64,000 nucleotides of DNA from an uncultured Candidatus Peribacteria bacterium (GCA_964534205.1 CAZHQF010000002.1:64488-128487); one strand, 5' to 3'. Shown: positions 25,384-61,515, counted from the first letter of the stretch. Notes: a model not told the origin generated them from the sequence alone. Made by a program: numbers and translations.

Positions 25384-25412
25384 TTGACAATTATTAAAAA
25401 TATGATTATCAT
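25384..25412 (+). promoter_or_regulatory. Sigma70-type promoter
   Basis: TTGACA, 17 nt, TATCAT. The -10 ends 10 nt before the ATG at 25423. Confidence 0.55.
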
Positions 25413-25422
25413 TGGCTTCCCT

Positions 25423-29860: not shown

Positions 29861-30061
29861 GCGGAGTATCGTATCATTGTAGCAGAAATCGTGCTTTTTC
29901 TCCAGCTGGAGCGGCGAACCGCCTTTGGGACGGGGGGGCCTGTTTTCCGCTACACTGCTGGCCGAATAGCCAGGTCTCTGACGTCCTTCAACCGGCGCAC
30001 CATCCGGTCGCTTCTCCGCGGCGCACACGGGTATATCTTTGGCAGGCGCGGTCAGGGCAGG

Positions 30062-31132
30062 GTGCACGGGTGGAAGGCCCTCTATCGACTGCGGGTCAAC
30101 GTTCTTCTGCATTCCCCCAGGGCGATCCGTGAAGCAAGCGCCTTTCAGCGGCCCAGACTCTGGGTCGATGACGAGGCATTCCCGCGCATCTTCAAGCTCC
30201 TCAGGCGTGCGCGCCACACCGTGCTGATCCAGATGTTCATCTGGAAGGACGACCGCATCGGCCGCAAGACCGCCGAGGTGCTCTGCGAGGCCGCTGACCG
30301 TGGCGTGAATGTGGAGATCTTCAAGGAAGCAGTGGGGGATTTCTTCGAGACCGATCAGGATTTTTTGACCACCAAATCTTCCGAAGATCCCGTGTGGAAG
30401 CGTTTCTGGAACCACAAGCGGATCCGTGTGGTCTATGAGCCGCGCAACGACCACACCAAGGTGTTCATTATCGATGACAATATCCTGCTGCTCACCGGCA
30501 TGAACGTCGCCGATGAATACCATGAGGAATGGCACGATTACATGGTTGAGCTCAAGGGGCACGCGTTCATCGAGCATTACCTGAGCCGCGGCGAAGCGGT
30601 GACCACCTCGGGAGCCGAACGGCTCGTGATGAATACCGATACACGCAAAGACATCCGCCCGGTGATGATGGAGCTCATTTCCGCCGCGCGCGAAACCATC
30701 GTCATCGAGCACTGCTACTTCTCCGATACGCAGGTGGTTGATGCCTTGGCTCAGAGAAGCCACGAAGGCGTGCGGGTGACGGTGATCGTGCCGAAAGAGC
30801 CCGATCTCCATTACAACGCCAACCAGCAGGCGATGGCGCGGCTCCTCTCCGGCGGCCATCCCAAGCGGTTGCAGGTGTTCCAGTATCCCCGCATCGTCCA
30901 CGGCAAGATCATGCTCATCGACCGCTCGCGCGCTTTCATCGGATCGGCAAATCTCATGGCCTCCTCGCTCGATGAGATGGGCGAGGTGAATGTGCTGCTC
31001 TCGGGTGCAAACTCCCCGGCTATCCTCAAGCTCCGTCAGGTATTACGTGATGACATACTCCAGAGTGAACCGCTCAGGAGCCCGCCGTCGCTGTGGTGGT
31101 TCAGGCGGTGGTTGGCATGGCTCAAGCTCTGA
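30062..31132 (+). CDS. Phospholipase D-superfamily protein with two HKD motifs (cardiolipin-synthase-like). Start uncertain (GTG 30062 proposed).
   Basis: NDHTKVFIIDDNILLLTGMN and IVHGKIMLIDRSRAFIGSANL. The upstream part of ORF 29348..31132 overlaps the ATPase gene antisense. Confidence 0.75.
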   Translation: MHGWKALYRLRVNVLLHSPRAIREASAFQRPRLWVDDEAFPRIFKLLRRARHTVLIQMFIWKDDRIGRKTAEVLCEAADRGVNVEIFKEAVGDFFETDQDFLTTKSSEDPVWKRFWNHKRIRVVYEPRNDHTKVFIIDDNILLLTGMNVADEYHEEWHDYMVELKGHAFIEHYLSRGEAVTTSGAERLVMNTDTRKDIRPVMMELISAARETIVIEHCYFSDTQVVDALAQRSHEGVRVTVIVPKEPDLHYNANQQAMARLLSGGHPKRLQVFQYPRIVHGKIMLIDRSRAFIGSANLMASSLDEMGEVNVLLSGANSPAILKLRQVLRDDILQSEPLRSPPSLWWFRRWLAWLKL

Positions 31133-31668: not shown

Positions 31669-32487
31669 TTACTGACGCCGTACTGCGCGTCTGATCAGTA
31701 ACCGTTTCAGTGTGCGAAGGGGATGTGCTTCCTGCTCCGGCTCCATAACGGTATCTGCAGGTGGCTGAATGCCAATGCTTGATACATTTGCTGCCGAGCT
31801 GCTGCTCACGGTTGTCACCTCGGCGCTCTCGGTATCCAGTGCCTCCTGCAGGAGGATCTGCATCCGCAGTCTGCGAAGCGTGGGTGCATGATTCTGGATG
31901 ATTTCCAAAATGCGTTCCGCCGCCTCGTTGCTTGCATCGGGATCACCGCTTGCTTCCAGAGCCGCTGCCCCTTCGGCGACTTCCTGCATTTTCCATTCGA
32001 TCTTCTCTATGAGGATCGCCTGCACGTCGGGCGTGAGGCGGCTGCGGGCAATCAGTTCCTCGGCTTCCTGCAGCCGGCGTTCGGCTTGCGTGGTGGCCCA
32101 GTCGGTCTGCGCTTCCGGTGAGAGCGCGAGCGCGGAGAAGACCGTCTCGTTGATGTTGATCTTCACCGGATACAGAGCGTCTCCGGGAACAGCGGCTTCC
32201 GCCGCAAAGCACACCTGTCCGCCGGTCGCGACGAGCAGCAGTGATGCGTACGCGGCCTTCCACTGCGTGCTCCAGCCGAAGGCAAACCAACGCCGCTTTT
32301 CGCGAACTGGATGCTCCGCTGCGTACGCGCGTATGGCCGAGCGCATGAGTGCTTTTCTGTCTGCTGGCATCTGCGTCTTCTGCGCCGGTGCAAAGAGGGC
32401 ATCAAGGTCCATCTGCTCCTGTAGACAATCGTCCCGGTCATTTCTGACGCCGGGGTTCTGCCGTTGATCGGAATCGCGCTGTGTCAT
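31669..32487 (-). CDS. Putative anti-sigma factor: one TM helix plus an extracytoplasmic helical domain (DUF5667-like)
   Basis: Overlaps the sigma gene by ATGA. TM helix WKAAYASLLLVATGG. GDALYPVKININE motif. Confidence 0.5.
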   Translation of the reverse strand: MTQRDSDQRQNPGVRNDRDDCLQEQMDLDALFAPAQKTQMPADRKALMRSAIRAYAAEHPVREKRRWFAFGWSTQWKAAYASLLLVATGGQVCFAAEAAVPGDALYPVKININETVFSALALSPEAQTDWATTQAERRLQEAEELIARSRLTPDVQAILIEKIEWKMQEVAEGAAALEASGDPDASNEAAERILEIIQNHAPTLRRLRMQILLQEALDTESAEVTTVSSSSAANVSSIGIQPPADTVMEPEQEAHPLRTLKRLLIRRAVRRQ

Positions 32488-32972
32488 GGATGCGGGAGAA
32501 GTGTACGGACTTTTTTCATGGCACGGGTGAGAGCGGCGGAGACGGCGTTTTCACTTTGTCCCGTGATGCTGGAGATGTCTTTGGGGCCGAGCCCGTCGAT
32601 GAAACGCATGACGAGGACGTCACGATCGGTCTGCGGCAGCTGTTCCAGGAGTCGTAGCACATCTTTTTCGGTCTCAAATTCCTGCGCCACGTTCTCTTCA
32701 CTCGCCGGATCAAAGCCGCCCTCCATGAGGACATCAAGAGAAGCGCTCTTCTTTTTCTTGTAGTGGTTGATGATCAGGTTGTTGGCGATGCGGAAGAGGA
32801 ATGCGCGCATCTGCTCGATCGAGTGCCCCTTGGCGATGTAATCCCACGCACGCAGGAAGGTATCCTGAGTGAGATCTGCCGCAATCTCGGTATCCGACAC
32901 GCGGTACGCGCAATGCCGGTAGATGGCATCGGCGTGGGCATCGTAGACACTGGTAAACTCGTCGGGCGTCAT
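32484..32972 (-). CDS. ECF-type RNA polymerase sigma factor
   Basis: Region 2: DLTQDTFLRAWDY. Region 4: LPQTDRDVLVMRFIDGLGPKDISSITGQSENAVSAALTRAMKKV. Confidence 0.88.
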   Translation of the reverse strand: MTPDEFTSVYDAHADAIYRHCAYRVSDTEIAADLTQDTFLRAWDYIAKGHSIEQMRAFLFRIANNLIINHYKKKKSASLDVLMEGGFDPASEENVAQEFETEKDVLRLLEQLPQTDRDVLVMRFIDGLGPKDISSITGQSENAVSAALTRAMKKVRTLLPHP

Positions 32973-33952: not shown

Positions 33953-35503
33953 ATGACACAAAACCGTATCCGTCTCGGGCTGGTGGGAGGAGTGGTCGCA
34001 CTCGTCGTGATGGCGGGCGTGTCGTCGCGCCTCAAGGCCGATGTCACGTCGGACTGTGTGGGCAAGCCGTACGGCTACCCCGGGTGCCCCACGCGTTCCA
34101 CCGCCCGTTCGTCCGCCGCGTCGGCACCGATGAGCTGCGGGAACGCGGTTGTCGATGCCGGTGAGCAGTGCGACAAGGGCCGCTTTAACGGGTACAGCGA
34201 CTGCTCCACGGAATGCACGGTGCTCTACTGCGGTGACGGCATCATCACGCCGCAGGCCGGTGAGGAGTGCGAGCCGCAGACCGAAGAGGTATACGTGCAA
34301 GATCCCCAGACCGGCGATCTTGTGACTGAAGTACGCTTTAAGTCCACCGGAGGTCAGTGCGGCAGCTACTGCGCCCCGCCTTCCTGTGACGCCTCCGGCC
34401 AGTGCTCCGGCGGCTGCCGCTGGGCGTTTGTGTACCAGTGCTCGTCTTCGTCTTCTGTATCTTCTGCCGCTGCGGCGACCGCAGAATCATCTTCCGCTGC
34501 CGTCTCCGCGACCCCGGTTACCCAGTCTTCGTCTGAATCCGCTACCGTTTCTTCCACTGCGGTCACCGCCTCTTCCGCCGGTGTGGGCCCCACGCTCTTC
34601 ACCTCCGTGCCGGTGTGCGGCAACGGCACCGTGGAAGCCGGTGAGGAATGTGATGACAGCAACCGCATCGATACCGATAACTGCACCAACCTGTGCCGCT
34701 CTCCGCGCTGCGGCGATGGTCTGCTGCAGGCGTACGAGGAGTGCGATGACGGCAACCGCATCGCCAACGACAACTGCACGCTCACCTGCAGACTTGCTTC
34801 CTGCGGTGACGGGGTTGTGCAGATTGCCGAGGACTGTGATGACGGAAACCGTGTGCAGAATGACGCGTGCACCAACGAGTGCCGCATCCCGCGTTGCGGC
34901 GATGCCATCATCCAGCGCGGTGAAGACTGCGATGACGGCAATGATGATGATGCCGACGCCTGCACCGCGCTCTGCCGCCGCGCGCGCTGCGGTGACGGCA
35001 TCCAGCAGAGCGGCGAACTCTGTGATGATGGCAACCGCGTTCAGAACGATTCCTGCAGCAACGACTGCCGCCTGCCGCGCTGCGGCGACGGTACCGTGCA
35101 AGCCGGTGAGCAGTGCGACAGCGGTGCCGATAACTCCGATACCGTCTCGGACCGTTGCCGCCTCACATGCCGCTTCCCCGCCTGCGGGGACAACATCATC
35201 GACAGCGGCGAAGAGTGCGACGGCGGCCCCAACTGCAACCAGTGCCGCACCGGTCTTGGCGGTGCAATCGATTCCTCGTCCTCCGCTCCCACGCATTCCG
35301 CAGCCCCGGTCGTCAGCGCCCGTACCGCCGGCATGAGTGCCGCACGCACGATGCTTGCGGGTACGCTCGGTGCCGCGGGTTCGCTCTCCATCTTAGGCGC
35401 GTGGATGCTGCGTCGCCGCCTTGCGAAGGTGCTGCGCTCGAGCCCCAAGTCGATCGACGATATCCCGCTCGATCAGATCGAGATGCCGTGGCATAAGTGG
35501 TAA
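33953..35503 (+). CDS. Surface protein with an N-terminal TM/signal, a Ser/Ala-rich linker, a tandem array of Cys-rich CGDG..E.CDDGN modules, and a C-terminal TM helix plus a ~30-aa basic tail
   Basis: Modules: CGNGTVEAGEECDDSNRIDTDNCTNLC, CGDGLLQAYEECDDGNRIANDNCTLTC, CGDGVVQIAEDCDDGNRVQNDACTNEC and more. C-terminal helix MLAGTLGAAGSLSILGAWMLRRR. Confidence 0.85.
   Translation: MTQNRIRLGLVGGVVALVVMAGVSSRLKADVTSDCVGKPYGYPGCPTRSTARSSAASAPMSCGNAVVDAGEQCDKGRFNGYSDCSTECTVLYCGDGIITPQAGEECEPQTEEVYVQDPQTGDLVTEVRFKSTGGQCGSYCAPPSCDASGQCSGGCRWAFVYQCSSSSSVSSAAAATAESSSAAVSATPVTQSSSESATVSSTAVTASSAGVGPTLFTSVPVCGNGTVEAGEECDDSNRIDTDNCTNLCRSPRCGDGLLQAYEECDDGNRIANDNCTLTCRLASCGDGVVQIAEDCDDGNRVQNDACTNECRIPRCGDAIIQRGEDCDDGNDDDADACTALCRRARCGDGIQQSGELCDDGNRVQNDSCSNDCRLPRCGDGTVQAGEQCDSGADNSDTVSDRCRLTCRFPACGDNIIDSGEECDGGPNCNQCRTGLGGAIDSSSSAPTHSAAPVVSARTAGMSAARTMLAGTLGAAGSLSILGAWMLRRRLAKVLRSSPKSIDDIPLDQIEMPWHKW
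34616..35245 (+). repeat. Six to seven tandem ~105-bp (about 35-aa) coding repeats (Cys-rich module array)
   Basis: Periodic C-G-[DN]-G-x5-E-x-C-D-D-G-N-x5-C-[TS]-x2-C in the translation. Confidence 0.8.
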
Positions 35504-40675: not shown

Positions 40676-40747
40676 TACTTATTGCTAATTGCTAATTTCT
40701 AATTTTACGGGGAATTAGCAATTAGAAATCAGGAATCAGAAATTAGT
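40676..40747. repeat. CTAATT-word long imperfect hairpin (copy c)
   Basis: attacttattgctaattgctaatttctaatt ttacgggg aattagcaattagaaatcaggaatcagaaattag. Confidence 0.8.
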
Positions 40748-40802
40748 GTTTGGCTTTTCAGTAAGCCAAAAACATGCTATAATAAAGAAGACACAAACCC
40801 CT

Positions 40803-42155
40803 ATGTTCTCCGTCCCCCTGTCCCTCCCTCGGACGCTCGTGGTGCTCACTGCACTGGCGGCGGTGGTGTGCCTGGACCTGGTGGGCCGGTACCGCGGGAA
40901 GCCATCCAATTACGCATTCGGCGTGCTCCTGGGCTCCGTGATCGGCGTGGGTCTCATCATCGCGTTGCAGTCGCTTTTCGGTACCGCGTACCGCAGCAAC
41001 GGGTTTGTGATGGCGATGGGAGTCCTCTTTGTGATTCTCGTCTGGCGTCTGCTCTTCGGAAACTGGGATGCCAAAACCAAGGCCACGGTGCTTGGTACCA
41101 TGAACTTCTGGATCGCGTTCCACATGCTCCTCTCGGAAACGCCACAGGAGCGGTTCGCGCACTTCCTCGCGATTGCCTTCGCCATCATTCCAGCCGTGGT
41201 GTGGTGCATGCTTTTCCTGCCGTACCACCGCGAGCGTCTCTCGATCGTGCTCACGATGTTCTTTGCGGGCATGCTCTCCACGGTGCCGATCCTCTTCTAC
41301 GATGCGCTCGTGCGCCGGGGGATCCAGATGGACTTCTTCCTCTTCCGCATCGTCCCGCAAAATTTTTCCGGTGCCGCCCATGCCTTCGTGCGCGGGCAAT
41401 GGCCGGAGCTTACGCCGGTGGCCATGTCGCTCTTCGGGATGTTCGTGTCGTTCGCGGTCGTCGGCATCATCGAGGAGGCAAGCAAGCTGTGGGTAGTGAA
41501 GAAGGCCGGTACCCAGTTTGTCCGCAGCATCGATGACGTGGTGCAGCTCGGTATCCTTGCGGGTATCGGTTTTGCCTTTGCGGAAAACGTGACGAGCAGC
41601 GGCTACTTCCTCAGCTTCGTCCGTGAATATCTGCTCCATCCGTCCAGTCCCGACTGGGTGGGCTTTCTCGGGAACGTGGCAGGGCGCTCCATCCTCACAA
41701 GCATGGTGCACATCGTGTCCACGGGCGTAATGGCCTACTTCCTCGGGCTTGCCATCTTTGCCGATCCCGTGATGCGCCACAGCTACGCGCGCGGCTGGCG
41801 GTTCCCGTTCATCGAGGAACTGCATGATCTCTTCGGTGCCGAGCGCAAGGAGCTTTTCCGCCGCGAGATGCTCCTCCTCGGTTTCGTGCTCTCCTCCGGT
41901 CTGCATGCGCTCAGCAACATCCTGGTCTCACTGCCCGATGCACTGCCCGGCAACCCGCGCACCATCGGCGATATCGTGGGAGCTCCCGCAGGCTCTCCGT
42001 TGCACCTCATTGCGTTCCTTGTCTTCCCGACACTCCTCTATGTGGGAGGCGGATTCCTGCTGCTGACGACCTTGCTCGGCAGGCGCGGAAATCGCGCGGT
42101 ACACGGCAAAAGAATAGTCGCCGACACGTTTGTCACGCGCGAGGGCGAGGTATAA
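40803..42155 (+). CDS. PrsW-like intramembrane metalloprotease family protein
   Basis: Multi-TM. GIIEEASKLWVV (EExxK) and GLHALSN (His motif). Confidence 0.6.
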   Translation: MFSVPLSLPRTLVVLTALAAVVCLDLVGRYRGKPSNYAFGVLLGSVIGVGLIIALQSLFGTAYRSNGFVMAMGVLFVILVWRLLFGNWDAKTKATVLGTMNFWIAFHMLLSETPQERFAHFLAIAFAIIPAVVWCMLFLPYHRERLSIVLTMFFAGMLSTVPILFYDALVRRGIQMDFFLFRIVPQNFSGAAHAFVRGQWPELTPVAMSLFGMFVSFAVVGIIEEASKLWVVKKAGTQFVRSIDDVVQLGILAGIGFAFAENVTSSGYFLSFVREYLLHPSSPDWVGFLGNVAGRSILTSMVHIVSTGVMAYFLGLAIFADPVMRHSYARGWRFPFIEELHDLFGAERKELFRREMLLLGFVLSSGLHALSNILVSLPDALPGNPRTIGDIVGAPAGSPLHLIAFLVFPTLLYVGGGFLLLTTLLGRRGNRAVHGKRIVADTFVTREGEV

Positions 42156-46235: not shown

Positions 46236-47348
46236 TTATTGGAGCCAGGGCTCGATGGTGACCCGGAGGTTCCAGAGGATTTCTGCCATGTCTCCGCGCG
46301 TGATCATCGTGCCTGCAGAGACACCGGCCGGCATTACCTGCTGTTCATTGAGCGCGTTGATGTACGGCACGTACCACTCAACGCCTGCCTGCGTTTTCAC
46401 ATCCAGGCCCATCGTCAGTGCAACAATCTTTGCTGCCTCAGCAGCATTGATCGTTGCGCTCGGGCGGAATGAGCCATCGGGATACCCGCGGATGATGTTT
46501 TCCTCTTTTGCGACGCACACGTACGCGGCGTACCACTCCTTGCGCGATACATCAGAGAAGAGAAGATCTCTATTGTTATTGAGACATTCATACGAGTAGT
46601 CACCGCTGTACATTGCTCCAACAAGCATCTTCACGAACTCTGCGCGGGTGATGAGCCTTTCGGGGCGGAACGTGCCATCCGGATAGCCCTGTACGATGCC
46701 GTGTGTCTTCACAAAGACGATAGCTTCAAAGATGGGATGACGCTCGGAGACATCGGTGAATGGCCGGTCAGCGGTCGCATCACCACCGTGCGTGAGGCAG
46801 GGCGGAGCGAAGTAATTGATCACGTGGCCGTCCTCAGTGCAGCTGGGATGTGTGGTTCCGTCCATGCACACGTACGGCTTGCACTCATCGGAAATAGTTG
46901 AAGATGACGAACTGGAGGACGACTGGGGAAGAGTCTTGAGATAGGCCAATGTTTCCGTGGCGTTCCTTATGCTTGCGGTCCCAGTACAGAGGCCAGTCCA
47001 GAGCTCATTATTGTAAGAGGATGACGTCGTGCCGTCCCGCGTATACGCAAAGACAACGTACTCACCGCCTTCGGAAAAGTTGAAGCCACAGGTGGCAGAA
47101 TCCTGATGGGAAAGAATCAGCACAGAGCTCCCCACATCTCCTTTCCACTCCTGATCGACATCGAATGTGTAGCCGATGATGCGGTTGCGGTCAGGCTCAC
47201 TGACTGCCGTGACCGTGCCTGAGAACACGACGTCTGCACGTTCATAGTGCTCAGCGGGTGTGGACATCATGCACGAACACGCATAAGCCGTGGTGGCGAC
47301 CAGAAACGCGCCGATGGCGGTACTGAGAGAAAGGAGAGGGTGTTTCAT
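46236..47348 (-). CDS. Secreted protein: TIMP-like (CSC N-terminus) OB/NTR domain + Ser linker + Cys-rich segment + three SLH repeats
   Basis: MKHPLLSLSTAIGAFLVATTAYA|CSCMMSTPAEHYERADVVFSGTV...CGFNFSEGGEYVVFA. SLH repeats: FTDVSERHPIF...GIVQGYPDGTFRP, FSDVSRKEWY...IIRGYPDGSFRP. Confidence 0.75.
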   Translation of the reverse strand: MKHPLLSLSTAIGAFLVATTAYACSCMMSTPAEHYERADVVFSGTVTAVSEPDRNRIIGYTFDVDQEWKGDVGSSVLILSHQDSATCGFNFSEGGEYVVFAYTRDGTTSSSYNNELWTGLCTGTASIRNATETLAYLKTLPQSSSSSSSSTISDECKPYVCMDGTTHPSCTEDGHVINYFAPPCLTHGGDATADRPFTDVSERHPIFEAIVFVKTHGIVQGYPDGTFRPERLITRAEFVKMLVGAMYSGDYSYECLNNNRDLLFSDVSRKEWYAAYVCVAKEENIIRGYPDGSFRPSATINAAEAAKIVALTMGLDVKTQAGVEWYVPYINALNEQQVMPAGVSAGTMITRGDMAEILWNLRVTIEPWLQ

Positions 47349-47451
47349 AGATACGGGGGAAGGTAGCACATGACCTACTACGGACAGATGGCCCGTGGGT
47401 AACACCATTGTCTGACGCATGGAGAATGCCCTTCTGACCGTTTTTCCACCC

Positions 47452-49806: not shown

Positions 49807-51333
<1,527 letters not shown>

Positions 51334-51367
51334 GATTTCTAATTCCTAATTGCTAATTCCTAATTGG
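51334..51367. repeat. CTAATT-word stutter spacer (copy d) between atpA and atpG
   Basis: gatttctaattcctaattgctaattcctaattgg. Confidence 0.8.
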
Positions 51368-52296
51368 CTCGCTCCCTCGCTGATATCCGGCGCAAAATCA
51401 AGTCCACCAAGTCCTTGAGACAGGTGACAAAAGCCATGGAACTGGTCTCCGCGTCCAAGATGCGTCGTGCCGTCCAGAATGCGCAGACGCTCCGGAGCTA
51501 CGCCCTCGCTGCGTGGGAGGTGCTCCAGAAGATGGCGATGGTGCAGGGCGGGGGACACCCGTTTCTCACGGAGCGCCCCGTCAAAAAGATTCTCGTCGTC
51601 CTCTTCTCATCCGACCGCGGACTCTGCGGCGGACTCAATGCCCAGATGTTCCGTACGGTCAACGCCTACCTGCGCGCCTCGCGCGAGCTCAAGGGGCTTG
51701 AAAAGATCGACTTCATCGCCGTCGGGCGCAAGGGCCAGCAGTTCCTCACCCGCATGGGCGAGAACGTGGTTGCCGCGTTCCCGGCATTCAGCAACCACCC
51801 GCAATTCCGCGATGTGCTGCCCATGGCCCGCATGGCCATCGACGGCTTCCGCGACGGGAACTATGACCACGTGGTGCTGCTCTACACCGATTTCGTTTCG
51901 CCGCTCCTGCAGGAGCCCACAGTCAAAGTGCTCCTACCGTTTTCGCCGTCGGAGCTCAAATCCATGATCGGCAGTCTCGATCAGCGCAAGACCACGTCTC
52001 GCGAGGATGAGGTGGCCAAAAACATCGAACTCCCCAAGAGCGAGTACCTCTTTGAGCCCGATCCCGTCGCCGTCCTCGACCGTATTTTGCCGCAGCTCAC
52101 CGAGGTGCAGATCTATCAGGGAGCCCTGGAGACGGCCGCGTCCGAGCATTCGGCACGCATGGTCGCGATGCGGAATGCCACCGATAACGCCACCGACGTG
52201 CTTGCCGATTACACGCTCACCTATAACCGCAGCCGCCAGGCGAATATCACTGCAGAATTGGCGGAGCTGAGTGCGTCCAAGGCGGCGCTCGATTAA
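51364..52296 (+). CDS. atpG: F1 ATP synthase subunit gamma (TTG start)
   Basis: LADIRRKIKSTKSLRQVTKAMELVSASKMRRA ... ITAELAELSASKAAL. Confidence 0.93.
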   Translation: MARSLADIRRKIKSTKSLRQVTKAMELVSASKMRRAVQNAQTLRSYALAAWEVLQKMAMVQGGGHPFLTERPVKKILVVLFSSDRGLCGGLNAQMFRTVNAYLRASRELKGLEKIDFIAVGRKGQQFLTRMGENVVAAFPAFSNHPQFRDVLPMARMAIDGFRDGNYDHVVLLYTDFVSPLLQEPTVKVLLPFSPSELKSMIGSLDQRKTTSREDEVAKNIELPKSEYLFEPDPVAVLDRILPQLTEVQIYQGALETAASEHSARMVAMRNATDNATDVLADYTLTYNRSRQANITAELAELSASKAALD

Positions 52297-52361
52297 CAAG
52301 GATCCATCAAAGAAAAACGGCACGGCATTTCTTCGTGGCGTTGATCATTGATTACAGGTGT

Positions 52362-52880
52362 TCAGTCCAAATCGCAGTAGGCGATGGACACATCCGAGAT
52401 CGGGTTTTGGCTTGGAGATGTGGAAACAGCGGTGCTGGTCTGAGCTCTGTAGGCTTTCAGGAGTTCCCACTCACCGCAGCCGGACTGTTCGTCGAACTCG
52501 CGCTTCTCGATCCTGAGGACGTTGCCGTCGCGGCGGAGGGCCACAAGCGTGCCGCCACCGGCGTAGTAGCTCCACCACGCGGCGATCACGTCTCTGGGGA
52601 GCAGGTCCTTCGTAAGAGAATCAAACATCACAGTGCCGTCTGTTTCGGACTCTTCGATGAGAATCCTGTCAGTCTTGCTTCCGGAGAGGACGACAGACGT
52701 GGTGTTTTTGGTCAGCCCCAGATCACCACCCACCGGGACGCTGTCAGTGATCACGGCGACGCGGAGAGCGCCCTCGCCGAGTGTCTCGAGGGTGCCGTAC
52801 GCGTCTTCATCTGGCTGAAGAGTGGGGGCAGCACAGGAAACGAGCAGCAGGCAGGTGAGGAGGAGAAGATGAGAGCGCAT
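52362..52880 (-). CDS. Lipoprotein
   Basis: ATG at 52880. Lipobox in MRSHLLLLTCLLLVSC. Confidence 0.65.
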   Translation of the reverse strand: MRSHLLLLTCLLLVSCAAPTLQPDEDAYGTLETLGEGALRVAVITDSVPVGGDLGLTKNTTSVVLSGSKTDRILIEESETDGTVMFDSLTKDLLPRDVIAAWWSYYAGGGTLVALRRDGNVLRIEKREFDEQSGCGEWELLKAYRAQTSTAVSTSPSQNPISDVSIAYCDLD

Positions 52881-52954
52881 ACATGGAGTGTGTCGCATTT
52901 TCTCTATCATGACAATTGAAGAAGCCAAAGTGCCAGCGATGAGGTTTCAAGAAA

Positions 52955-53030
52955 GATCCAGAATCCAGTTTTCAGTAGGCAAGTATATTCTTGCTAGCTG
53001 ATGTTTGGATTCTGAATCCTCTTTGGACTT
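52955..53030. repeat. Divergent GAATCC-word compound hairpin (copy E) downstream of the P-type ATPase
   Basis: gatccagaatccag ... ggcaagtatattcttgc ... tttggattctgaatcctctttgg. Confidence 0.65.
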
Positions 53031-53061
53031 TGGCTTTTGGCACTCTGGTTTTTCTCGAAGG

Positions 53062-55722
53062 TTATTCTTTCATCCTCCGCGTGAACCACTTGCCGAATTC
53101 GAGCACGGGCACGATGGTCAGGGCGGCGGGGATGATAATCATCCAGTCCATGGATGTGAGGCTGAAGGTACCGAACGCCGTGTGGAACGGCGGCCAGTAG
53201 ACGATCACGAAGAGCAACGCGAGTTCCCACAGGATCGCCATATTGAGCCACTTGTTGCGGAAGAAGCCATAGAAGATGGTGTGCGTATCGCTGCGGAAAC
53301 TGTACGCCTTGAAGAACTCGATCAGGACCAGGCTCACGAAGATCATCGTCATCGCCTCCTCGTGCGCGCGGCCGGAGTTATCGGCGTAGTTATAGAGCCA
53401 GAGGTTCACAAGCGTTGACCAGATACCGCCAAGGAGCAGGAGTGTCACTACGGGCTTGGTGAAGATCCCTTTGCGCGGGTCGCGCGGCGGGTGCTTCATC
53501 AGGTCCTTGGCCGGCGGATCGAGCGCAAGCGCGAGTGCGGGCAATCCATCGGTCGCCAGGTTGATATAGAGGATCTGCACGGCCGAGAGCGGCAGCGGCC
53601 AGCCGAGGATCGTGGCACCGGTCATGATGCCGATCTCACCGATGTTGGCGGAGAGCAGGTACATGAGGTACTTCTTGATATTGCCGAAGATCGCGCGGCC
53701 TTCTTCCACCGCTGCGACGATGGACGCGAAGTTGTCATCGGTGAGGGTCATCGCAGCGGCCTCTTTGGAAACGTCCGTTCCGGTGATGCCCATCGCCACT
53801 CCGATGTCCGCCTTCTTGAGTGCGGGTGCGTCATTCACGCCGTCACCGGTCATGGCAGCCACGTGTCCCTCCTCTTGCAGTGCAGTGACCACGCGCAGTT
53901 TGTGAGCCGGGGAGACGCGCGCAAATACACCGATCTCATCGATCTGCTCCTTGAGCTCCTTGTCGCTCATCTTCTCCAGTTCCGCTCCGATCACCACCCC
54001 GTCCTTCTTCTGGAGGATCCCCAGTTCTCTGGCGATCGCCTCCGCGGTCACCGGGTGATCGCCCGTGATCATGATCACACGGATGCCCGCCTGGTGGCAG
54101 GTGGCAATCGCCGCTTTGGCCTCCGGACGCGGGGGATCGATCATGCCGAAGAGTCCGAGGAACTTCATGCCCTTGTGCGCATTCTCGATATCATCCGTTC
54201 CCTTGCGCGCAACCGCGAGCACGCGCATACCCTGCTCGGCCATCGCTTTGGCATCGTCCAGAATGCGCCTGCGCCCCTTCTCGTCCAAATCCTTCTCGCC
54301 TTCATGGCCCCATTCACGGGTGCAGAACGGCAGCAGGATCTCGGGAGCGCCTTTGGTGTAGCTCATGTGTCCTTCCTCCAGTTCATGGAGGGTCGTCATG
54401 CGCTTGGTTTCCGAGGTGAAGGGAATTTCATTCTTGCGCGGATGTTTTTTATCAAGGTCCGGCTTGGGAAGACCTGCTTTCGCGGCTGCGACGACAATTG
54501 CGCCTTCGGTCGGGTCACCGATGATGTCCCAGCCTTCGGCACCGTTATGCAGACGCGCATCGGAGGAGAGTGTTCCTGCCGTCAGCGTTTCCATCAGGGC
54601 AGGGGAGAGCTCCGCCTTCGTTCCGTCGACGGTAAATTCTCCCTCCGGTGCGTAGCCCGCTCCCGAGACTTCGTACGTGACGCCTGCTGTGCGCACGGCG
54701 CGGACGGTCATTTCGTCTTTCGTGAGGGTTCCGGTTTTGTCGGTACAGATGACGGTGGTACTGCCCAGCGTTTCCACGGCGGGCAGACGGCGGATGAGCG
54801 CGTGGCGTTTGACCATGCGTTGCACGCCGATGGCGAGCGAGACGGTCACCACTGCAGGCAGAGCCTCCGGCACCACGGCCACCGCAAGCGCGATACCGAA
54901 GAGCAGGATGTCGATGAAGCTCTCGCCGCGCATCCACCCGAGCCCGCTGATGATGACGACGATCACGAGTGCGGCTTTGGCCAGCGTGTGGCCCACTTTT
55001 TCCAGGTTCTTCTGCAGCGGCGTCTCCTCCTGTTCCACCGTATCCAGCATGGTTGCGATCTTGCCGAACTCCGTCTGCATGCCCGTGCCCGTCACCGCCA
55101 CTTTGCCGCGTCCGTAGGTGATGGCCGTACCCGCGAACACCATGCAGCGCTGATCACCGGGGTTCAGCTTGTCGCCCTCCACGGCTTCCGTCTGTTTCTC
55201 CGAAGGAAGACTCTCTCCGGTGAGAGCAGCCTCCTCGGCTTTCATGGTCATACTCTCAATCACGCGTCCGTCCGCAGGTACGCGGTCACCGGCAGAGAGG
55301 AGCACGATATCCCCGGGCACCACGTCACTCGCCGGGATTTCGGTCGGCAGACCGTTGCGTAGCACCTTGGCTGCAGGAGCCGCCATCTTCTTCAGTGCTT
55401 CCATGGCCTTCTCCGCGCGGAACTCCTGTACGAACCCGAGTCCCACGGCAAAGAGCACAATGATGCCGATGGTGACGGCTTCCACCGTGTGCCCCAGGAA
55501 CGCCGAAAGCGCCACCGCGAGGAGCAGGATGATCACAAGTACGTTCTTAAACTGCCCAAGCAAGAGTTCCCACGCGGAAACCCCTCCCTTCTTTTTCAGT
55601 TCGTTCTTGCCGTACTCCAAAAGTCTCCTCTGCGATTCCTGTTCATCAATGCCGTCCCCGGCATTGGTCTTGAGGAGGGAGAGCGTTTCCTCGATCGACT
55701 GGGAGTAGAAGGGGGTGTGCAT
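53062..55722 (-). CDS. P-type cation-transporting ATPase (P2/Ca2+-ATPase-like)
   Basis: ICTDKTGTLT, MITGDHPVTA, TGDGVNDAPALKKADIGVAMG, PEALPAVVTVSLA. Confidence 0.93.
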   Translation of the reverse strand: MHTPFYSQSIEETLSLLKTNAGDGIDEQESQRRLLEYGKNELKKKGGVSAWELLLGQFKNVLVIILLLAVALSAFLGHTVEAVTIGIIVLFAVGLGFVQEFRAEKAMEALKKMAAPAAKVLRNGLPTEIPASDVVPGDIVLLSAGDRVPADGRVIESMTMKAEEAALTGESLPSEKQTEAVEGDKLNPGDQRCMVFAGTAITYGRGKVAVTGTGMQTEFGKIATMLDTVEQEETPLQKNLEKVGHTLAKAALVIVVIISGLGWMRGESFIDILLFGIALAVAVVPEALPAVVTVSLAIGVQRMVKRHALIRRLPAVETLGSTTVICTDKTGTLTKDEMTVRAVRTAGVTYEVSGAGYAPEGEFTVDGTKAELSPALMETLTAGTLSSDARLHNGAEGWDIIGDPTEGAIVVAAAKAGLPKPDLDKKHPRKNEIPFTSETKRMTTLHELEEGHMSYTKGAPEILLPFCTREWGHEGEKDLDEKGRRRILDDAKAMAEQGMRVLAVARKGTDDIENAHKGMKFLGLFGMIDPPRPEAKAAIATCHQAGIRVIMITGDHPVTAEAIARELGILQKKDGVVIGAELEKMSDKELKEQIDEIGVFARVSPAHKLRVVTALQEEGHVAAMTGDGVNDAPALKKADIGVAMGITGTDVSKEAAAMTLTDDNFASIVAAVEEGRAIFGNIKKYLMYLLSANIGEIGIMTGATILGWPLPLSAVQILYINLATDGLPALALALDPPAKDLMKHPPRDPRKGIFTKPVVTLLLLGGIWSTLVNLWLYNYADNSGRAHEEAMTMIFVSLVLIEFFKAYSFRSDTHTIFYGFFRNKWLNMAILWELALLFVIVYWPPFHTAFGTFSLTSMDWMIIIPAALTIVPVLEFGKWFTRRMKE

Positions 55723-55750
55723 GTTACAATTCTGCCTGAAGTTGTCGTCA

Positions 55751-55783
55751 ACAAAAAATCCCGGAGACATTGTCTCCGGGATT
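55751..55783 (-). terminator. Perfect hairpin plus T6 on the minus strand, between a small ORF and the ATPase start
   Basis: Minus strand reads aatcccggagaca a tgtctccgggatt, then TTTTTG. Confidence 0.7.
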
Positions 55784-55802
55784 CGACCGCTCCGAGGAGC
55801 TG

Positions 55803-55949
55803 TCAGAAGCGCCAGGTCGGTTCACCGAACCGGCCGGCGAGGCCGTACAGGATGCCCATTGCGGTGACGATCAGGACCCCAAGGGCCCAGTCGGACCAAC
55901 TTTGTGGGGTCGCTTCACCTTCGCGGTTTTCCAAGACCTCTTGGTCCAT
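55803..55949 (-). CDS. Small single-TM protein (48 aa) upstream of the P-type ATPase
   Basis: SD aAAGGAGcctgccATG. MDQEVLENREGEATPQSWSDWALGVLIVTAMGILYGLAGRFGEPTWRF. Below the ORF-track cutoff. Confidence 0.6.
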   Translation of the reverse strand: MDQEVLENREGEATPQSWSDWALGVLIVTAMGILYGLAGRFGEPTWRF

Positions 55950-56130
55950 GGCAGGCTCCTTTCAAGGAACGGAGAGTGTCACCCAGAACGCCGGAAATCG
56001 GACATTCCTGAAGGTGACTCTTCATTATAACATGCTCTCCCAAATTATTCCATGGTTGTCAATTTTTCTGATTCTCTGAATAGGATCAGAATTTCTTTGA
56101 GAATCAGGAAACCAGTAGTAGCATCCCGGT

Positions 56131-56538
56131 ATGTCAGAAGTGCTCCGCCATGAGGCTCCGGAAGCTCCCAAGCGCTGGACAGATATCCTCGTACGGATCG
56201 GCAAAACAGCAGCAGATATTGCGAACGCAGTGAAAGTCGCTCTCTTACCCGATCCTGCCGCGGCGGCGCTTCTCTCCGACAAAGATTTTGTCGAGGGCTT
56301 TACCAAGAGATATCAGGAAATGCTGCAAGAAGGACGTGAGTTTGCGGAGACTGACCCGGATTCCGGACTAGGTGACGTTTTTTATGTGAACGGATGCATC
56401 TTCCCCCACGAGTGTTTTTCCTTGGCATACGATGAGTATCGGCAAGAGTATCCGGAAATGATGCGGCTCACGGAAAAGGGGCAGCGTGATCTGCGGATAG
56501 GGCTGATGGAAGCCAGCGGAACAGTCTCCATGTACTGA
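56131..56538 (+). CDS. Hypothetical protein
   Basis: 135-aa coherent ORF. No family recognised. Confidence 0.55.
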   Translation: MSEVLRHEAPEAPKRWTDILVRIGKTAADIANAVKVALLPDPAAAALLSDKDFVEGFTKRYQEMLQEGREFAETDPDSGLGDVFYVNGCIFPHECFSLAYDEYRQEYPEMMRLTEKGQRDLRIGLMEASGTVSMY

Positions 56539-56541
56539 TCC

Positions 56542-57774
56542 TCACTCCGTCTGGCAGCTGCTGTCGCAGCCGTCACCGCTACTGGAGTTGCTGTCATCAC
56601 ACTCTTCACCGGTCTGCGTGACGCCGTTGCCGCACGTTGCGATGACGTTCACCGAGAATCCCGCGCCCGTGTTGTCCCAGCTCTGGCCGCGGTTTTCGAA
56701 GCTCGAGCCGTCGTAGCCATCCACAGGGATACTCGTCATACCGAGGCTCGAGGCGTTGAAGTGCACGGTGATGTTGCTGAATCCCGCCAAGCAGCCGACG
56801 TAGTACGATCCCAGGTAGTTGCGGCTGGAAACAGAGCAGCCACCATTTTCAAAAGTGATGCCGGTGACATCCGGGTGCTGCGGGTTAATGTATGGTGCGG
56901 AGGAGGTGGAGCCGCGGTTTTCCACGCTGGCCGTCAGGTTGCAGGTGATGTTGGCCTCGCAGGTGAAGCCGCCGCCCACGCTCGTGTAGCTGTAGTCCCA
57001 GGTAATCAGGCAACCCGGTGTGCACGAATCTCCCCAGTCCAGGTTTCCGTCATCGCACTCCTCCCCGTTGTCTACAACATCATTACCGCATTGGTTATTG
57101 GATGAGCTCGAGTCGGAAGACGAGGAGGAATCAGAGGAACTGGAGTCGGACGAGGATGAGGAAGAGTCAGACGAGGATGAACTGGAATCGGAAGAAGAGG
57201 AATCAGAAGAGCTCGATCCCGCTGCGGATGACGATTCCGAGGAGCTCGAGTCGGTAGAAGAGGATTCGGAAGAGCTGGAGCCGCCCGATGAAGACGAGCT
57301 TTCGCCGCCTTCCGTTTCCGTCGAGGCGGTGCAGCGCATTCCGCTTGCCGTATCGATGTAATCCGAGCAGATGCGCGGGCGCTGGGCCGTGTCTTTGTAG
57401 AGACGGTACCCGAGCACGACGCTGCCCGTCTCACGCACATCAATCGGCAGTTCAGTGAGATAATCCGGCACGAGCACATCCAGGCTCAGGCAGGACGGGT
57501 CCGTGATTCCCTGTTGGCAAATGGGTGTGGCTTGGGGTTCGGCAAACGGAATACCGGTGACGGGATCCCTGCCTTCGCGGATGAGGTACTCCATCATCGC
57601 CTTTTCCATCTCACGCACGTGCGTTCTGCGTCTGGCGTTCTCGGCGTCCTCCAGCTGCTTTCCCGGGTTGATGGCTACAAGCACGATGGAGGACAGCACG
57701 CCGATCATGCCGATGGCAACGAGCAGCTCGATCAGCGTGAATCCGCGCCGGCTCTGGAGAAAGCCTGTACGCAT
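56542..57774 (-). CDS. Type IV pilin-like protein: prepilin N-terminus + poly-Ser/Asp stalk + two CDDGN Cys-rich modules flanking a ~150-aa domain
   Basis: MRTGFLQSRRG|FTLIELLVAIGMIGVLSSIVLVAI (G-1, F+1, E+5). CGNDVVDNGEECDDGN and CGNGVTQTGEECDDSN. Confidence 0.85.
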   Translation of the reverse strand: MRTGFLQSRRGFTLIELLVAIGMIGVLSSIVLVAINPGKQLEDAENARRRTHVREMEKAMMEYLIREGRDPVTGIPFAEPQATPICQQGITDPSCLSLDVLVPDYLTELPIDVRETGSVVLGYRLYKDTAQRPRICSDYIDTASGMRCTASTETEGGESSSSSGGSSSSESSSTDSSSSESSSAAGSSSSDSSSSDSSSSSSDSSSSSSDSSSSDSSSSSDSSSSNNQCGNDVVDNGEECDDGNLDWGDSCTPGCLITWDYSYTSVGGGFTCEANITCNLTASVENRGSTSSAPYINPQHPDVTGITFENGGCSVSSRNYLGSYYVGCLAGFSNITVHFNASSLGMTSIPVDGYDGSSFENRGQSWDNTGAGFSVNVIATCGNGVTQTGEECDDSNSSSGDGCDSSCQTE

Positions 57775-58364
57775 CAGAAGGTCTGGAGGAAGAGGATCCA
57801 CCCGACAGTCGAGAACAGCAGCAGCACGTGTGCACCCCGCGGCCACTCGCGGACCAGCTTGCGGTTACGCATCTGGATAACCGTCACGATGCAGGCAGTC
57901 CCGAGCAGGAACAGCGTGGTTGCGGCGGTCAGCGGCGAATCGATGTTCAGAAGAGAGGCGACACCGATCCCGAACATCATGCCGAGACTCAACGAAATGC
58001 CGTAGATGCGCGTCTTGAGGGAAATCAGTTCCGCTGCGACGGCGACGGCGATAACGAGCAGTGCCGGGCCGAGGAGCCGGATACCCTCATACGGGGTGAT
58101 CAGCGGCAATTCAGTCGCAAGGAGAGACGCACATGCAGCCAAAAATGCCACCACCTGTACCAGCACGTGGTTCGGGGAGGGCAGGTGCGGGTGGGTGAAT
58201 TCCACCCTGTCGAGGCGGACATCATCCAGAAAGGACCAGCGCACCGCCCGGACCCAGACGAGCGCGGCAATGGAGAGGAGCAGGATTCCCGTGCTCATCG
58301 TAAACATCTGGAGACTCGTGGAACTGGAGAGATAGTCCGACCAGCGGAGGAGAGTGGGCGACAT
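57774..58364 (-). CDS. Polytopic membrane protein of unknown function, translationally coupled to the pilin-like gene
   Basis: About five hydrophobic helices. Its TGA shares the A with the pilin ATG (TGATG at 57772-57776). Confidence 0.65.
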   Translation of the reverse strand: MSPTLLRWSDYLSSSTSLQMFTMSTGILLLSIAALVWVRAVRWSFLDDVRLDRVEFTHPHLPSPNHVLVQVVAFLAACASLLATELPLITPYEGIRLLGPALLVIAVAVAAELISLKTRIYGISLSLGMMFGIGVASLLNIDSPLTAATTLFLLGTACIVTVIQMRNRKLVREWPRGAHVLLLFSTVGWILFLQTF

Positions 58365-58392
58365 TGGGTATTGGTGTCAGAAGTTCTGTATT

Positions 58393-58401
58393 ATTCTACC
58401 A
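58393..58401 (-). promoter_or_regulatory. Extended -10 promoter element for the membrane protein-pilin operon
   Basis: Minus strand reads TGGTAGAAT, 29 nt upstream of the ATG, in an AT-rich region. Confidence 0.45.
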
Positions 58402-58477
58402 CAAGCCAAAATGGTTGAGTATTCACAAAAATATGAATATATATTATAAATATACTTCTAATCTCTCTTTGCAGTGA

Positions 58478-58693
58478 TTACATGTTGGAGTAGAACTGCT
58501 TTTTGCGGTTCTGCTGGCGGTATTCCTCGCGCTTCAGGGCGCGCTTGCGGCGCAGGCGTGCCGTGGGCTTACGCTTGTGGATGGCGCGCTCGCGGAGCAT
58601 CTTCAGAATACCGGTCTTCTGGACCTGCTTCTTAAAGCGCTGCTGGAGCCTGTCGGAGGACTCGTCGCCGTGTTTGATCGCGTAGATAGCCAT
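58478..58693 (-). CDS. rpsU: 30S ribosomal protein S21
   Basis: 71 aa, very basic. SDRLQQRFKKQVQKTGILKMLRERAIHKRKPTARLRRKRALKRE. Confidence 0.88.
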   Translation of the reverse strand: MAIYAIKHGDESSDRLQQRFKKQVQKTGILKMLRERAIHKRKPTARLRRKRALKREEYRQQNRKKQFYSNM

Positions 58694-58725
58694 AAAGCTG
58701 GGAGATGGTAGGGAAAGGACGGTGC

Positions 58726-59379
58726 TTACGCAAGGGCATTCTGCGCCCAGTCATTGAGGGCCGAGGTGATACCCCGGCGTTCCGGCAGATCTTTGCTTTC
58801 CGCATGTTCAACCCTCAGAACCTCCTTTTTCGTGCGCTGAAAGAGGCCCCATTCATTGAGGAAAAATCCCTGATCGTTCAGGACATCGTGAATGATCCAT
58901 CGGAAGTAGTCTCTGGATTCCTTCTCGCCATGAGGCAAGGCATGGAATGCCATGCAGAGATCAAAGCGCTCCGACAGAGGGGAAAGTGGGCTGCCACCGA
59001 TTGCACGGAAGTTCGGTACCACACGGTTTTTCAGCTGCACCGTGTCCTCATCATCCACCTCCAACAGGTACTCGATCTGTAACGATCTGATGAGTGACCG
59101 GTATTCCCTGGTGGGCAGATCCGTGCCCGTGATCTGCCGTGCGGGCCACTGCTGGAATGATGATTGGATGGCATCATCATTGTTCTGCAGCACGGTGAAC
59201 CGGACTGCACGATGTGCGATGGCGAGAACCGATTCATTCAGGCCGGTATCCGGGCCGATGGAGAGCACGGACTCAATCTGTGGATTGCGCTGAAGGATTT
59301 CCGCGACAGTATGGCCGTCCCCGTTCTTCCGGAGCTCTGCATTCAACCGATGGATCAGCACAGGACCAGGTGAGTGCAT
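58726..59379 (-). CDS. Hypothetical protein (weak SAM-methyltransferase motif-I-like VLSIGPDTG)
   Basis: ATG at 59379 lies 9 nt after a TACAAT. A TTG at 59397 is the alternative start. Confidence 0.5.
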   Translation of the reverse strand: MHSPGPVLIHRLNAELRKNGDGHTVAEILQRNPQIESVLSIGPDTGLNESVLAIAHRAVRFTVLQNNDDAIQSSFQQWPARQITGTDLPTREYRSLIRSLQIEYLLEVDDEDTVQLKNRVVPNFRAIGGSPLSPLSERFDLCMAFHALPHGEKESRDYFRWIIHDVLNDQGFFLNEWGLFQRTKKEVLRVEHAESKDLPERRGITSALNDWAQNALA

Positions 59380-59387
59380 AGGCGTGA

Positions 59388-61515
<2,128 letters not shown>

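Follow-up and report, generated by a model that had tools for sequence, protein, structure and literature searches.

Type IV pilins that carry extra domains have been described as modular pilins, in which the IPR012902 pilin module is joined to at least one domain that is not specific to pilus biology; InterPro holds more than 1,200 such proteins in 264 architectures, with examples from the candidate phyla radiation (CPR) among them, and in S. sanguinis PilB has a vWA module and PilC a lectin module, adhesion having been demonstrated for PilB (Raynaud et al. 2021, PMC8179133). Such pilins are regarded as a means for simple type IV filaments to acquire new binding abilities, and in CPR/Patescibacteria pilins with large C-terminal domains have been implicated in host-cell attachment. 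In the Saccharibacteria (TM7x), the minor pilins PilX1 and PilX2 end in a jelly-roll or beta-propeller domain, and PilX2, the one described with a propeller, is needed for host binding (PMC11623550). Here we describe a pair of adjacent genes in a 64,000-nucleotide (nt) stretch of DNA from an uncultured Candidatus Peribacteria bacterium (GCA_964534205.1, CAZHQF010000002.1:64488-128487; the whole stretch is called the window below). The pair encodes a modular pilin of 410 amino acids (aa) and, directly upstream, a 196-aa membrane protein with six transmembrane (TM) segments, the founding query of what we call the HPHLPS family.

Among polytopic proteins connected with pilins, the TfpY/TfpZ/TfpX/FimB-like proteins have been proposed to bind pilins in the membrane, help start their assembly and stay outside the fibre (PMC11841053). 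The six-TM sensor domain of the PilS histidine kinase interacts directly with pilin in the membrane, according to the passage of PMC6058289 that cites Kilmury and Burrows 2016. In the window pair, the pilin by itself is a further member of the established modular-pilin class and not novel alone; the new element of the locus is its partner, which belongs to an undescribed family. The recurrence of this gene pair in related uncultured bacteria suggests that the partner is a new helper protein in the display of such subunits. We favor, with a probability of roughly 0.55, the reading that the cassette consists of a modular pilin and a pilin-specific membrane accessory factor, a chaperone or adapter, that serves a displayed binding pilin.

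The membrane protein tracks one pilin-module clade

Pairing was assessed by looking up the contigs that encode members of the HPHLPS family and translating the DNA downstream. A pilin of one and the same clade was encoded directly downstream of the family gene in 12 of 13 independent loci (Table 1; L and P numbers are our handles for loci and proteins), which bears out the dedicated membrane partner proposed in an earlier interpretation of the window from its sequence alone (the sequence-only reading). The partner stop codon and the pilin start codon overlapped in half of the paired loci, by 1 nt in two and by 4 nt in four.

Table 1. Loci in which a gene of the HPHLPS family stands directly upstream of a clade pilin gene
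Locus	Membrane protein	Downstream pilin	Junction
Window	196 aa	410 aa: Ser linker, DUF4215 / 125-aa domain / DUF4215	overlap 1 nt
L086	192 aa	P0001, 622 aa, two galactose-binding-like domains	gap 34 nt
L087/88	P0087	N-terminus ...SRSG followed by FTLLEIL, contig end after	overlap 1 nt
L089	P0088	491 aa, DUF4215 array	overlap 4 nt
L090	P0090	594 aa, Big_5, PT-HINT, Cys/Asp repeats	gap 80 nt
L091	P0095	pilin N-terminus, contig end after	gap 3 nt
L092-94	P0097	601 aa, Big_13, Kelch-like propeller	overlap 4 nt
L095/96	P0106	pilin fragment	start uncertain
L098	P0109 and a second tandem copy	pilin	overlap 4 nt
L099/100	P0092	462-aa N_methyl protein	overlap 4 nt
L101, L102	found via pilin scan	pilin module and Ser/Tyr/Asn-rich tail only	gap 12 nt (L101)

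The association was also apparent from the side of the pilin. With a hidden Markov model (HMM) of the clade pilin module, every full-length pilin that scored at least 145 bits had the partner upstream, and the pilins of L092, L099, L101 and L102 reached this score without having been used in building the model. About 75 metagenome pilins scored lower; most were 135-150 aa long with ~3 kb of upstream sequence present, and none had the partner. At 80 reference-genome loci of relatives of the pilin, the partner was found at none (0/80), and no polytopic gene stood consistently upstream. Across the paired loci the cargo consisted of DUF4215 arrays, an immunoglobulin (Ig)-like domain with HINT, a propeller, galactose-binding-like domains, or a Ser-rich tail only, and the partner was constant. 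The partner thus tracks one pilin-module clade, whatever the cargo. Since the partner is constant and the cargo variable, the partner is expected to act on the conserved pilin module.

Variable C-terminal cargo, together with a pretoxin HINT domain in L090, would also suit a polymorphic-toxin-like system in which the pilin module is the trafficking domain of variable effectors and the membrane protein is an immunity protein. We consider this very improbable. An immunity protein would normally vary along with its toxin and have its gene downstream, whereas here the membrane protein stays the same while the cargo varies, its gene precedes that of the pilin, and it is present even where a Ser-rich tail is all that follows the pilin module (L101, L102); Pfam and NCBIfam searches found no toxin domain in the window pilin. 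On the grounds of a conserved partner and a variable cargo, the immunity-protein reading was rejected.

Several related loci have features of their own. The L090 pilin (2659-4443) combines a Big_5 Ig-like domain, the pretoxin HINT domain and Cys/Asp-rich repeats, and its HINT domain raises the possibility that the distal part is released autoproteolytically. In L098 (1-3836), the partner gene is present as a tandem duplicate (2476-3078 and 3225-3836), both copies preceding the pilin gene, and genes for CheW, Hpt and two response regulators adjoin. Many 135-150-aa pilins with a near-invariant N-terminus, GFTLIELLLVIGIIAILASIVIVAI, were found at the JGI metagenome loci L105-L180, none of them with a six-TM partner; they are likely to be major pilins in a widespread lineage to which the window organism is related.

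Both open reading frames (ORFs) of the window pair had the codon-position pattern of G+C content (GC) of real genes, in a window of 58% GC; for the membrane gene GC1/2/3 was 0.60/0.44/0.79, typical for genes of this window. Three Logan contigs were 100% identical to window positions 50800-59615, and their own gene calls gave the same 196-aa and 410-aa products with the same pilin ATG. Ahead of neither start codon was a Shine-Dalgarno sequence evident, and an alternative GTG start lies 72 nt upstream of the pilin ATG. These two observations would fit a chance adjacency or an annotation artefact, in which, for example, the true pilin start lies downstream of FTLIELL or the membrane ORF is no gene. 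We regard this as extremely improbable, and conservation effectively refutes it: pairing was found in 12 of 13 loci and the family alignment starts from the first residues of the partner, to which are added the coding GC signature, the concordant independent gene calls and HMM scores that were all above cut-off. The one-base TGATG overlap that the sequence-only reading had reported was present (Table 2) and is consistent with translational coupling of partner and pilin.

That reading had also placed an extended -10 element ahead of the pair. The spacer upstream of the membrane gene (31% GC) contains TGGTAGAAT, a match to the extended -10 consensus whose first base (58401) lies 37 nt and whose last base (58393) lies 28 nt upstream of the membrane-gene ATG. 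A TGGTAnnnT element occurs at -31 in L087 (TGGTACGAT) and at -30 in L091 (TGGTATACT), in the latter against a background of 74% GC, and L095 has TATAAT at -34; at the remaining cassette loci the partner gene stands directly behind another upstream gene. The proposed element is a consensus match, somewhat supported by the same TGGTAnnnT element in two related loci, but a scan upstream of the pair for canonical -35/-10 (two-hexamer sigma-70) promoters returned none. Judged by these motifs, a common extended -10 promoter for the cassettes is plausible. Terminator-like matches near the gene pair occurred only at chance level. On the opposite strand, a convergent 135-aa ORF without a family match (56131-56538, +) ends 3 nt from the pilin stop, so that no terminator fits between these genes.

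Anatomy of the pilin and of its partner

Table 2. Features of the gene pair and of a related segment elsewhere in the window
Feature	Coordinates	Strand	Description and basis
Membrane-partner gene	57774..58364	-	196 aa, six-TM, HPHLPS family; ORF read
Pilin gene	56542-57774	-	410 aa; ORF read
TGATG junction	57772..57776	-	partner stop codon shares one base with pilin ATG
Extended -10-like element, TGGTAGAAT	58393..58401	-	consensus match; candidate promoter of the gene pair
Most conserved partner stretch, aa 37-63	58176..58256	-	W..RA.RLSFLD..L..VE..HPHLPS; first cytoplasmic loop, after TM1
Class III (prepilin) leader, aa 1-11	57742..57774	-	MRTGFLQSRRG, ends with Gly-1; motif and HMM
Pilin module, aa 12-150	57325..57741	-	FTLIELL alpha1 helix, then putative globular part; N_methyl, TIGR02532
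Ser-rich low-complexity linker, aa 151-226	57097..57324	-	53 of 76 residues Ser, also D, E, G, T, A; composition
DUF4215 / Myxococcus-type Cys-rich acidic repeat 1, aa 229-255	57010..57090	-	CGNDVVDNGEECDDGNLDWGDSCTPGC; Pfam, TIGR02232, motif scan
Central 125-aa domain, aa 256-380	56635..57009	-	4 Cys; without detectable relative
DUF4215 repeat 2, aa 381-410	56545..56634	-	CGNGVTQTGEECDDSNSSSGDGCDSSCQTE; best-scoring DUF4215 and TIGR02232 stretch, aa 380-410
Three-TM N-terminal extension (aa 50-128) of the PrsW-family intramembrane protease ORF 40746-42155	40893..41129	+	partner-family HMM

The window pilin begins with MRTGFLQSRRGFTLIELLVAIGMIG, in which the leader MRTGFLQSRRG is followed by FTLIELLVAIGMIG, with Gly-1, Phe+1 and Glu+5. 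The leader is short (11 aa), basic (3 Arg), ends with Gly and is followed by Phe+1, as in prepilins; the leaders of the clade pilins are likewise short, basic and G-ended (A in L095). In a six-frame regular-expression scan of the 64 kb, this was the only prepilin motif at the start of an ORF. The protein matched Pfam N_methyl (PF07963) with 27.9 bits (curated cut-off 21.2) and TIGR02532 with 29.0 bits (curated cut-off 16.3), so that the prepilin motif proposed from the sequence was recovered by both prepilin-domain HMMs. It also matched Pfam DUF4215 with 34 bits (cut-off 27) and TIGR02232 with 51.2 bits (cut-off 20.8), each over two stretches with the C..GEECDDGN..GDGC...C spacing, in agreement with the suggestion that the Cys-rich modules are DUF4215-like. 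With N_methyl and DUF4215/TIGR02232 matches above cut-off in one 410-aa protein, the pilin fits the published definition of a modular pilin (PMC8179133), as had been proposed.

In the pilin module, Glu+5 is E16 of the FTLIE motif, and the Kyte-Doolittle profile peaks at 2.79 over aa 17-35, the hydrophobic stretch of alpha1-N. Four conserved Cys (C86, C95, C136 and C148) probably form two disulfides. The module is 40-54% identical to those of P0001, P0002, P0004, L089, L090 and L095, and Glu+5 and the alpha1 consensus are retained in all clade pilins. A profile of the module matched the alpha1 helices of Geobacter PilA-N (6e-9), S. sanguinis PilE1, GspG and PAK pilin among PDB sequences. The nearest relatives of the module in reference genomes were ordinary pilins of 96-211 aa, mostly from metagenome-assembled genomes of Patescibacteria; identity was 26-71% over the best matching segment and at most 38% where most of the module aligned.

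AlphaFold2 placed a helix at aa 14-67, followed by strands, with a block-mean predicted local distance difference test (pLDDT) score of ~50-75 over aa 11-140. Mean pLDDT of the full pilin was 39.6, with the cargo at 20-33 and the linker unstructured, and the Foldseek matches of this model were discarded as meaningless. Structure prediction, suggested as a check by the sequence-only reading, was thus informative for the partner (pLDDT 84.4) and not for the C-terminal domain of the pilin.

Behind the module, the linker has the length that the sequence-only reading had given it (about 75 aa) and a broader composition than the Ser and Asp residues it had named (Table 2). It is probably an extended stalk. 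Similar Ser-rich linkers or tails were found in P0001, P0002, P0004, L101 and L102. The window linker is not a DNA tandem repeat, and slippage-driven change of its length is therefore unlikely. Matches of the pilin to DDHD, SOG2, SPX and sigma-54 were below cut-off and were set aside as low-complexity artefacts of this linker.

The two Cys-rich modules (repeat 1 with the pattern CGNDVVDNGEECDDGN...C...C) do bracket a Cys-containing domain, as had been noted, but this domain has about 125 rather than ~150 residues. No Pfam or NCBIfam match was found for the central domain, nor any match for the cargo among PDB sequences, and a homology search with the C-terminal region of the pilin alone matched DUF4215 repeats and nothing else; in that search the layout of DUF4215, insert and DUF4215 was otherwise common only to P0021. 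The Cys-rich cargo holds five N-x-S/T sequons (N275, N279, N334, N340 and N396; 56545-57009, aa 275-398), four of them within the central domain and N396 within repeat 2, and these together with the Ser-rich linker are possible glycosylation sites, going by the motif. The pilin stop codon occupies 56542-56544. All in all, the sequence features were present at the coordinates of the sequence-only reading, and its interpretation held on the points examined. The architecture of the pilin alone is less unusual than that reading implied, and the conserved partner is the more interesting part of the locus.

The partner was taken by the sequence-only reading for a five-TM protein; it has six hydrophobic segments by Kyte-Doolittle analysis, and AlphaFold2 with 21 family members gave a six-helix bundle (pLDDT 84.4; predicted template-modelling score, pTM, 0.77) with helices at aa 16-44, 64-85, 91-114, 116-139, 144-165 and 176-195 and, at aa 51-57, a short motif-bearing helix. 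An exhaustive HMMER search of 1.84 billion protein representatives returned 28 matches at E<1e-3, one of which was spurious, leaving ~27 members, nearly all of 190-204 aa. The spurious match was P0089, a 4261-aa leucine-rich-repeat protein that the family HMM does not match. The family is recognized by ~190-205 aa, six TM segments, VE..HPHLPS after TM1, a Glu ending TM3 and a Trp in TM6. In family alignments E55 and P62 are invariant, and H58, P59, H60, S63, E112, G128 and W189 are at least 90% conserved; the window protein, which served as the query of the family search, has all the motif residues. Lys+Arg averaged 3.3, 2.1 and 2.7 per loop across the family in L1, L3 and L5, compared with 0.2-0.6 in other segments. 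These counts predict an N-out/C-out topology with loops L1, L3 and L5 in the cytoplasm, and therefore put the conserved Glu and His on the cytoplasmic side of the membrane.

Searches for described relatives of the partner family came back empty. A word-indexed homology search with the 196-aa protein found only itself, a metagenome scan with a subset of the membrane family gave no confirmed match, and no relative was found in Pfam or NCBIfam or, by sequence, in the PDB; Foldseek of the model against the PDB returned nothing (best E 0.6, TM-score at most 0.3). We found no description of the family in the literature, and its members are called 'hypothetical protein' in public annotations. Among specific candidates, Peptidase_A24 gave no match at E<=1 for any of 21 members, in which no Asp is invariant; PrsW and Abi HMMs did not match the partner, nor did the T2SSF (PilC platform) domain in Pfam or NCBIfam.

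One resemblance was detected within the window. The partner-family HMM matched the N-terminal extension of the PrsW-family ORF with 25-30 bits, compared with 10.4 bits for the best of 2000 shuffles and 8.7 bits for the next-best unrelated ORF of 12,659, and hhalign aligned family and extension with a probability of 77% (E 2e-5). The likeness is between TM4-TM6 of the partner and an unannotated, non-catalytic extension; the PrsW domain is separate, at aa 167-396. On sequence similarity, the extension and TM4-TM6 of the partner are possibly a paralogous module. A mobile unit of three TM segments, found with an intramembrane protease as well, may thus make up the C-terminal half of the partner; we take this as a lead and not as a conclusion. 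PrsW-type proteases cut single-pass N-in/C-out membrane proteins, and a prepilin has the same topology.

The position of the near-invariant E55, H58, H60 and E112 at the cytoplasmic face, as predicted for the prepilin cleavage site, raises the question of whether the partner is an enzyme that acts there on the pilin N-terminus: a dedicated non-aspartic Glu/His leader peptidase or an N-terminal modifier, which would give the cassette its own processing, besides or without PilD. The likeness of the C-terminal half to the module that, in the same genome, is joined to a PrsW-family intramembrane protease would agree with this, as would the lack of a prepilin peptidase gene near any cassette. We nevertheless hold an enzyme to be unlikely, as the partner matched no protease or methyltransferase in Pfam, NCBIfam or the PDB, the likeness to the PrsW protein covers the non-catalytic extension and not the protease domain, and a family without an invariant Asp is not an A24-type peptidase.

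A putative route to display, and its difficulties

In the reading that we prefer, a chaperone or adapter for a displayed pilin, the prepilin would be inserted as an N-in/C-out, bitopic protein with its leader and the Gly-1/Phe+1 junction at the cytoplasmic face. The partner, made in step with the pilin, would bind the conserved N-terminal helix or the leader of the pilin in the membrane; E55, H58, P59, H60, P62, S63 and E112 lie at its cytoplasmic face, the predicted face of leader and cleavage site. As a pilin-specific chaperone or adapter it would keep the bulky subunit assembly-competent and pass it to the type IV pilus machine of the organism. The pilin would then be built in at low copy, probably at or near the tip, with the stalk and the Cys-rich head projecting as a binding module. 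The partner would in this way do the job proposed for the TfpY/FimB-like accessory proteins with an unrelated fold. We infer adhesion, incorporation into a pilus, location at the tip and glycosylation of the stalk. That the pilin assembles into a pilus is assumed because type IV pili are near-universal in Patescibacteria (PMC11623550).

Several observations weigh against this reading. No PilB/C/D/M/T gene was found within the 64-kb window, and no pilus machinery gene within 6-10 kb of the related cassettes. At the thirteenth locus, L097 (1036-1359), the gene after that of P0091, the family's most divergent member (motif HPYIPN), encodes a protein with a Sec signal peptide instead of a pilin, from which the family may also serve partners other than pilins, and the related pilin P0002 occurs without a partner. 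DUF4215 is without known function and the cargo was not modelled with confidence (pLDDT 20-33), so that a 'binding head' is proposed by analogy; the interaction of partner and pilin is presumed; and the conserved E/H/H/E cluster would seem to exceed the needs of a passive chaperone.

The same lack of pilus machinery next to any cassette would be expected if the pilin-like protein were never polymerised and its helix were an anchor held by the six-TM partner, making a static stalked adhesin or receptor, or a pilin-type signalling device. The two other DUF4215 proteins of the window share the plan of anchor, low-complexity stalk and Cys-rich head, with the anchor C-terminal, and the 76-aa Ser stalk would be able to reach through a cell wall or an S-layer, genes for SLH and sortase proteins being present in the window. 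For a signalling device one may point to the CheW, Hpt and response-regulator genes next to the L098 cassette and to the sensing of membrane pilins by the six-TM PilS, as far as the account in PMC6058289 goes. However, Gly-1, Glu+5 and the alpha1 consensus, which matter for cleavage and packing and none of which an anchor needs, are found in all clade members, and the module's closest relatives are ordinary pilins of 135-210 aa. Since these features are kept in full across the clade, a processed, polymerised subunit is favored over a mere anchor, and we think a static device rather unlikely.

Taken more broadly, the partner could be a new pilin-handling device that makes the cassette self-sufficient, either as a Glu/His peptidase or modifier unrelated to PilD or as a membrane socket for a non-polymerising stalked receptor. 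We entertain this as a tentative alternative that has some, if limited, chance of being right. If true, ultrasmall monoderm bacteria would process or display class III signal peptide proteins in a way not recognised before; whether as an enzyme or as an anchor, the partner would add a new component to the biology of class III signal peptides.

The surroundings of the pair in the window contain further surface proteins. As the sequence-only reading had noted, the Cys-rich module is reused in two of them, ORFs 65-3913 (+) and 33953-35503 (+), both with DUF4215 modules, a low-complexity stalk and a C-terminal TM anchor. The first has at least 1282 aa and runs off the left edge of the window; its low-complexity stalk of Gly, Ser and Thr runs to several hundred residues, there are several DUF4215 modules, and its C-terminal hydrophobic segment has an RRRRK tail, so that it shares the design of the pilin (anchor, stalk and Cys-rich head) with the anchor at the C-terminus instead. 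Overlapping its low-complexity part is another open frame (1933-2784), whose coding signature is strong. Just upstream of the second, a 516-aa protein, and divergent from it, lie genes for an extracytoplasmic-function-type sigma factor (32484-32972, -) and a DUF5667 protein (31669-32487, -), the latter possibly an anti-sigma factor. Together with the PrsW-like protease, these two hint at an envelope-stress-type control of the Cys-rich surface proteins.

A sortase fused to an SLH domain is encoded at 25384-26640 (+) and a separate SLH-domain protein at 46236-47420 (-). The sortase and SLH proteins suggest a monoderm envelope with an S-layer, which would fit long stalks on surface proteins, and sortase, SLH-domain and DUF5667 proteins in the window fit a CPR-like monoderm. 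A 1175-aa protein encoded at 27374-30901 (-) has a TrwB/VirD4-like coupling-protein ATPase domain, and the P0002 gene (L084) adjoins genes for a TraG/VirB4-like ATPase and three T4SS_pilin proteins; these organisms may have a type IV secretion system.

Comparison with described pilins and accessory proteins

The locus is a compact, conserved pair, with one pilin-module clade, interchangeable cargo and one six-helix partner, and it is genetically testable. An HPHLPS gene followed by a pilin gene is also a simple marker by which cargo-carrying pilins can be found in metagenomes.

As in the modular pilins described so far, a module is grafted onto the window pilin, and the expected role is that the filament presents a binding module. 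Unlike them, the window pilin bears DUF4215, an orphan 125-aa domain and DUF4215 behind an unusually long, 76-aa Ser-rich stalk; its gene lies outside any pilus locus and is coupled to a dedicated polytopic membrane gene, a trait not described for modular pilins. The term DUF4215 was not found in the portion of the supplement text of Raynaud et al. (PMC8179133) that was available. The two CGNG..GEECDDGN...C..C modules are clear members of the Myxococcus Cys-rich acidic repeats (TIGR02232 / DUF4215 / IPR011936), a family typical of extracellular, often adhesive, proteins. They differ from the usual arrangement in that there are two only, bracketing an unrelated domain, grafted onto a pilin.

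PilX1 and PilX2, compared here by description only, resemble the window pilin as Patescibacteria-type pilins with large C-terminal domains, and the cargo in L092 is propeller-like as well. In contrast to the cassettes described here, their genes belong to type IV pilus loci that also encode other pilins, and no HPHLPS-type partner has been reported for them.

PilD and TadV (A24) resemble the partner in being polytopic, and they act at the cytoplasmic face on the prepilin leader. Small Tad-type prepilin peptidases are similar in size to the partner. The partner differs in having neither an A24 HMM match nor the conserved Asp pair, its conserved residues being Glu and His. The PilS sensor, in so far as it is characterized in the passage of PMC6058289 cited above, belongs to a protein with a cytoplasmic kinase that regulates pilA transcription, whereas the partner is a bare 196-aa bundle without a kinase, for which no homology to PilS was detected.

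A parallel exists with the TfpY-like proteins, which are likewise pilin-specific, polytopic and encoded in a conserved cassette with the pilin. Those proteins have three TM segments and a periplasmic globular (mixed beta-sheet) domain, and their genes, in Pseudomonadota, follow that of the major pilin after an attenuating terminator (PMC11841053). The HPHLPS partner, by contrast, has six TM segments and no soluble domain, is encoded upstream of and translationally coupled to a modular, probably minor, pilin, and shows no similarity to them in sequence or fold. If it is a chaperone or adapter, it would represent a second, independent invention of the TfpY-type solution and would give a handle on the incorporation of minor pilins in monoderms. 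The coupled pairing of a modular pilin with an undescribed six-TM family is a new variation on the theme of 'pilin plus accessory protein'.

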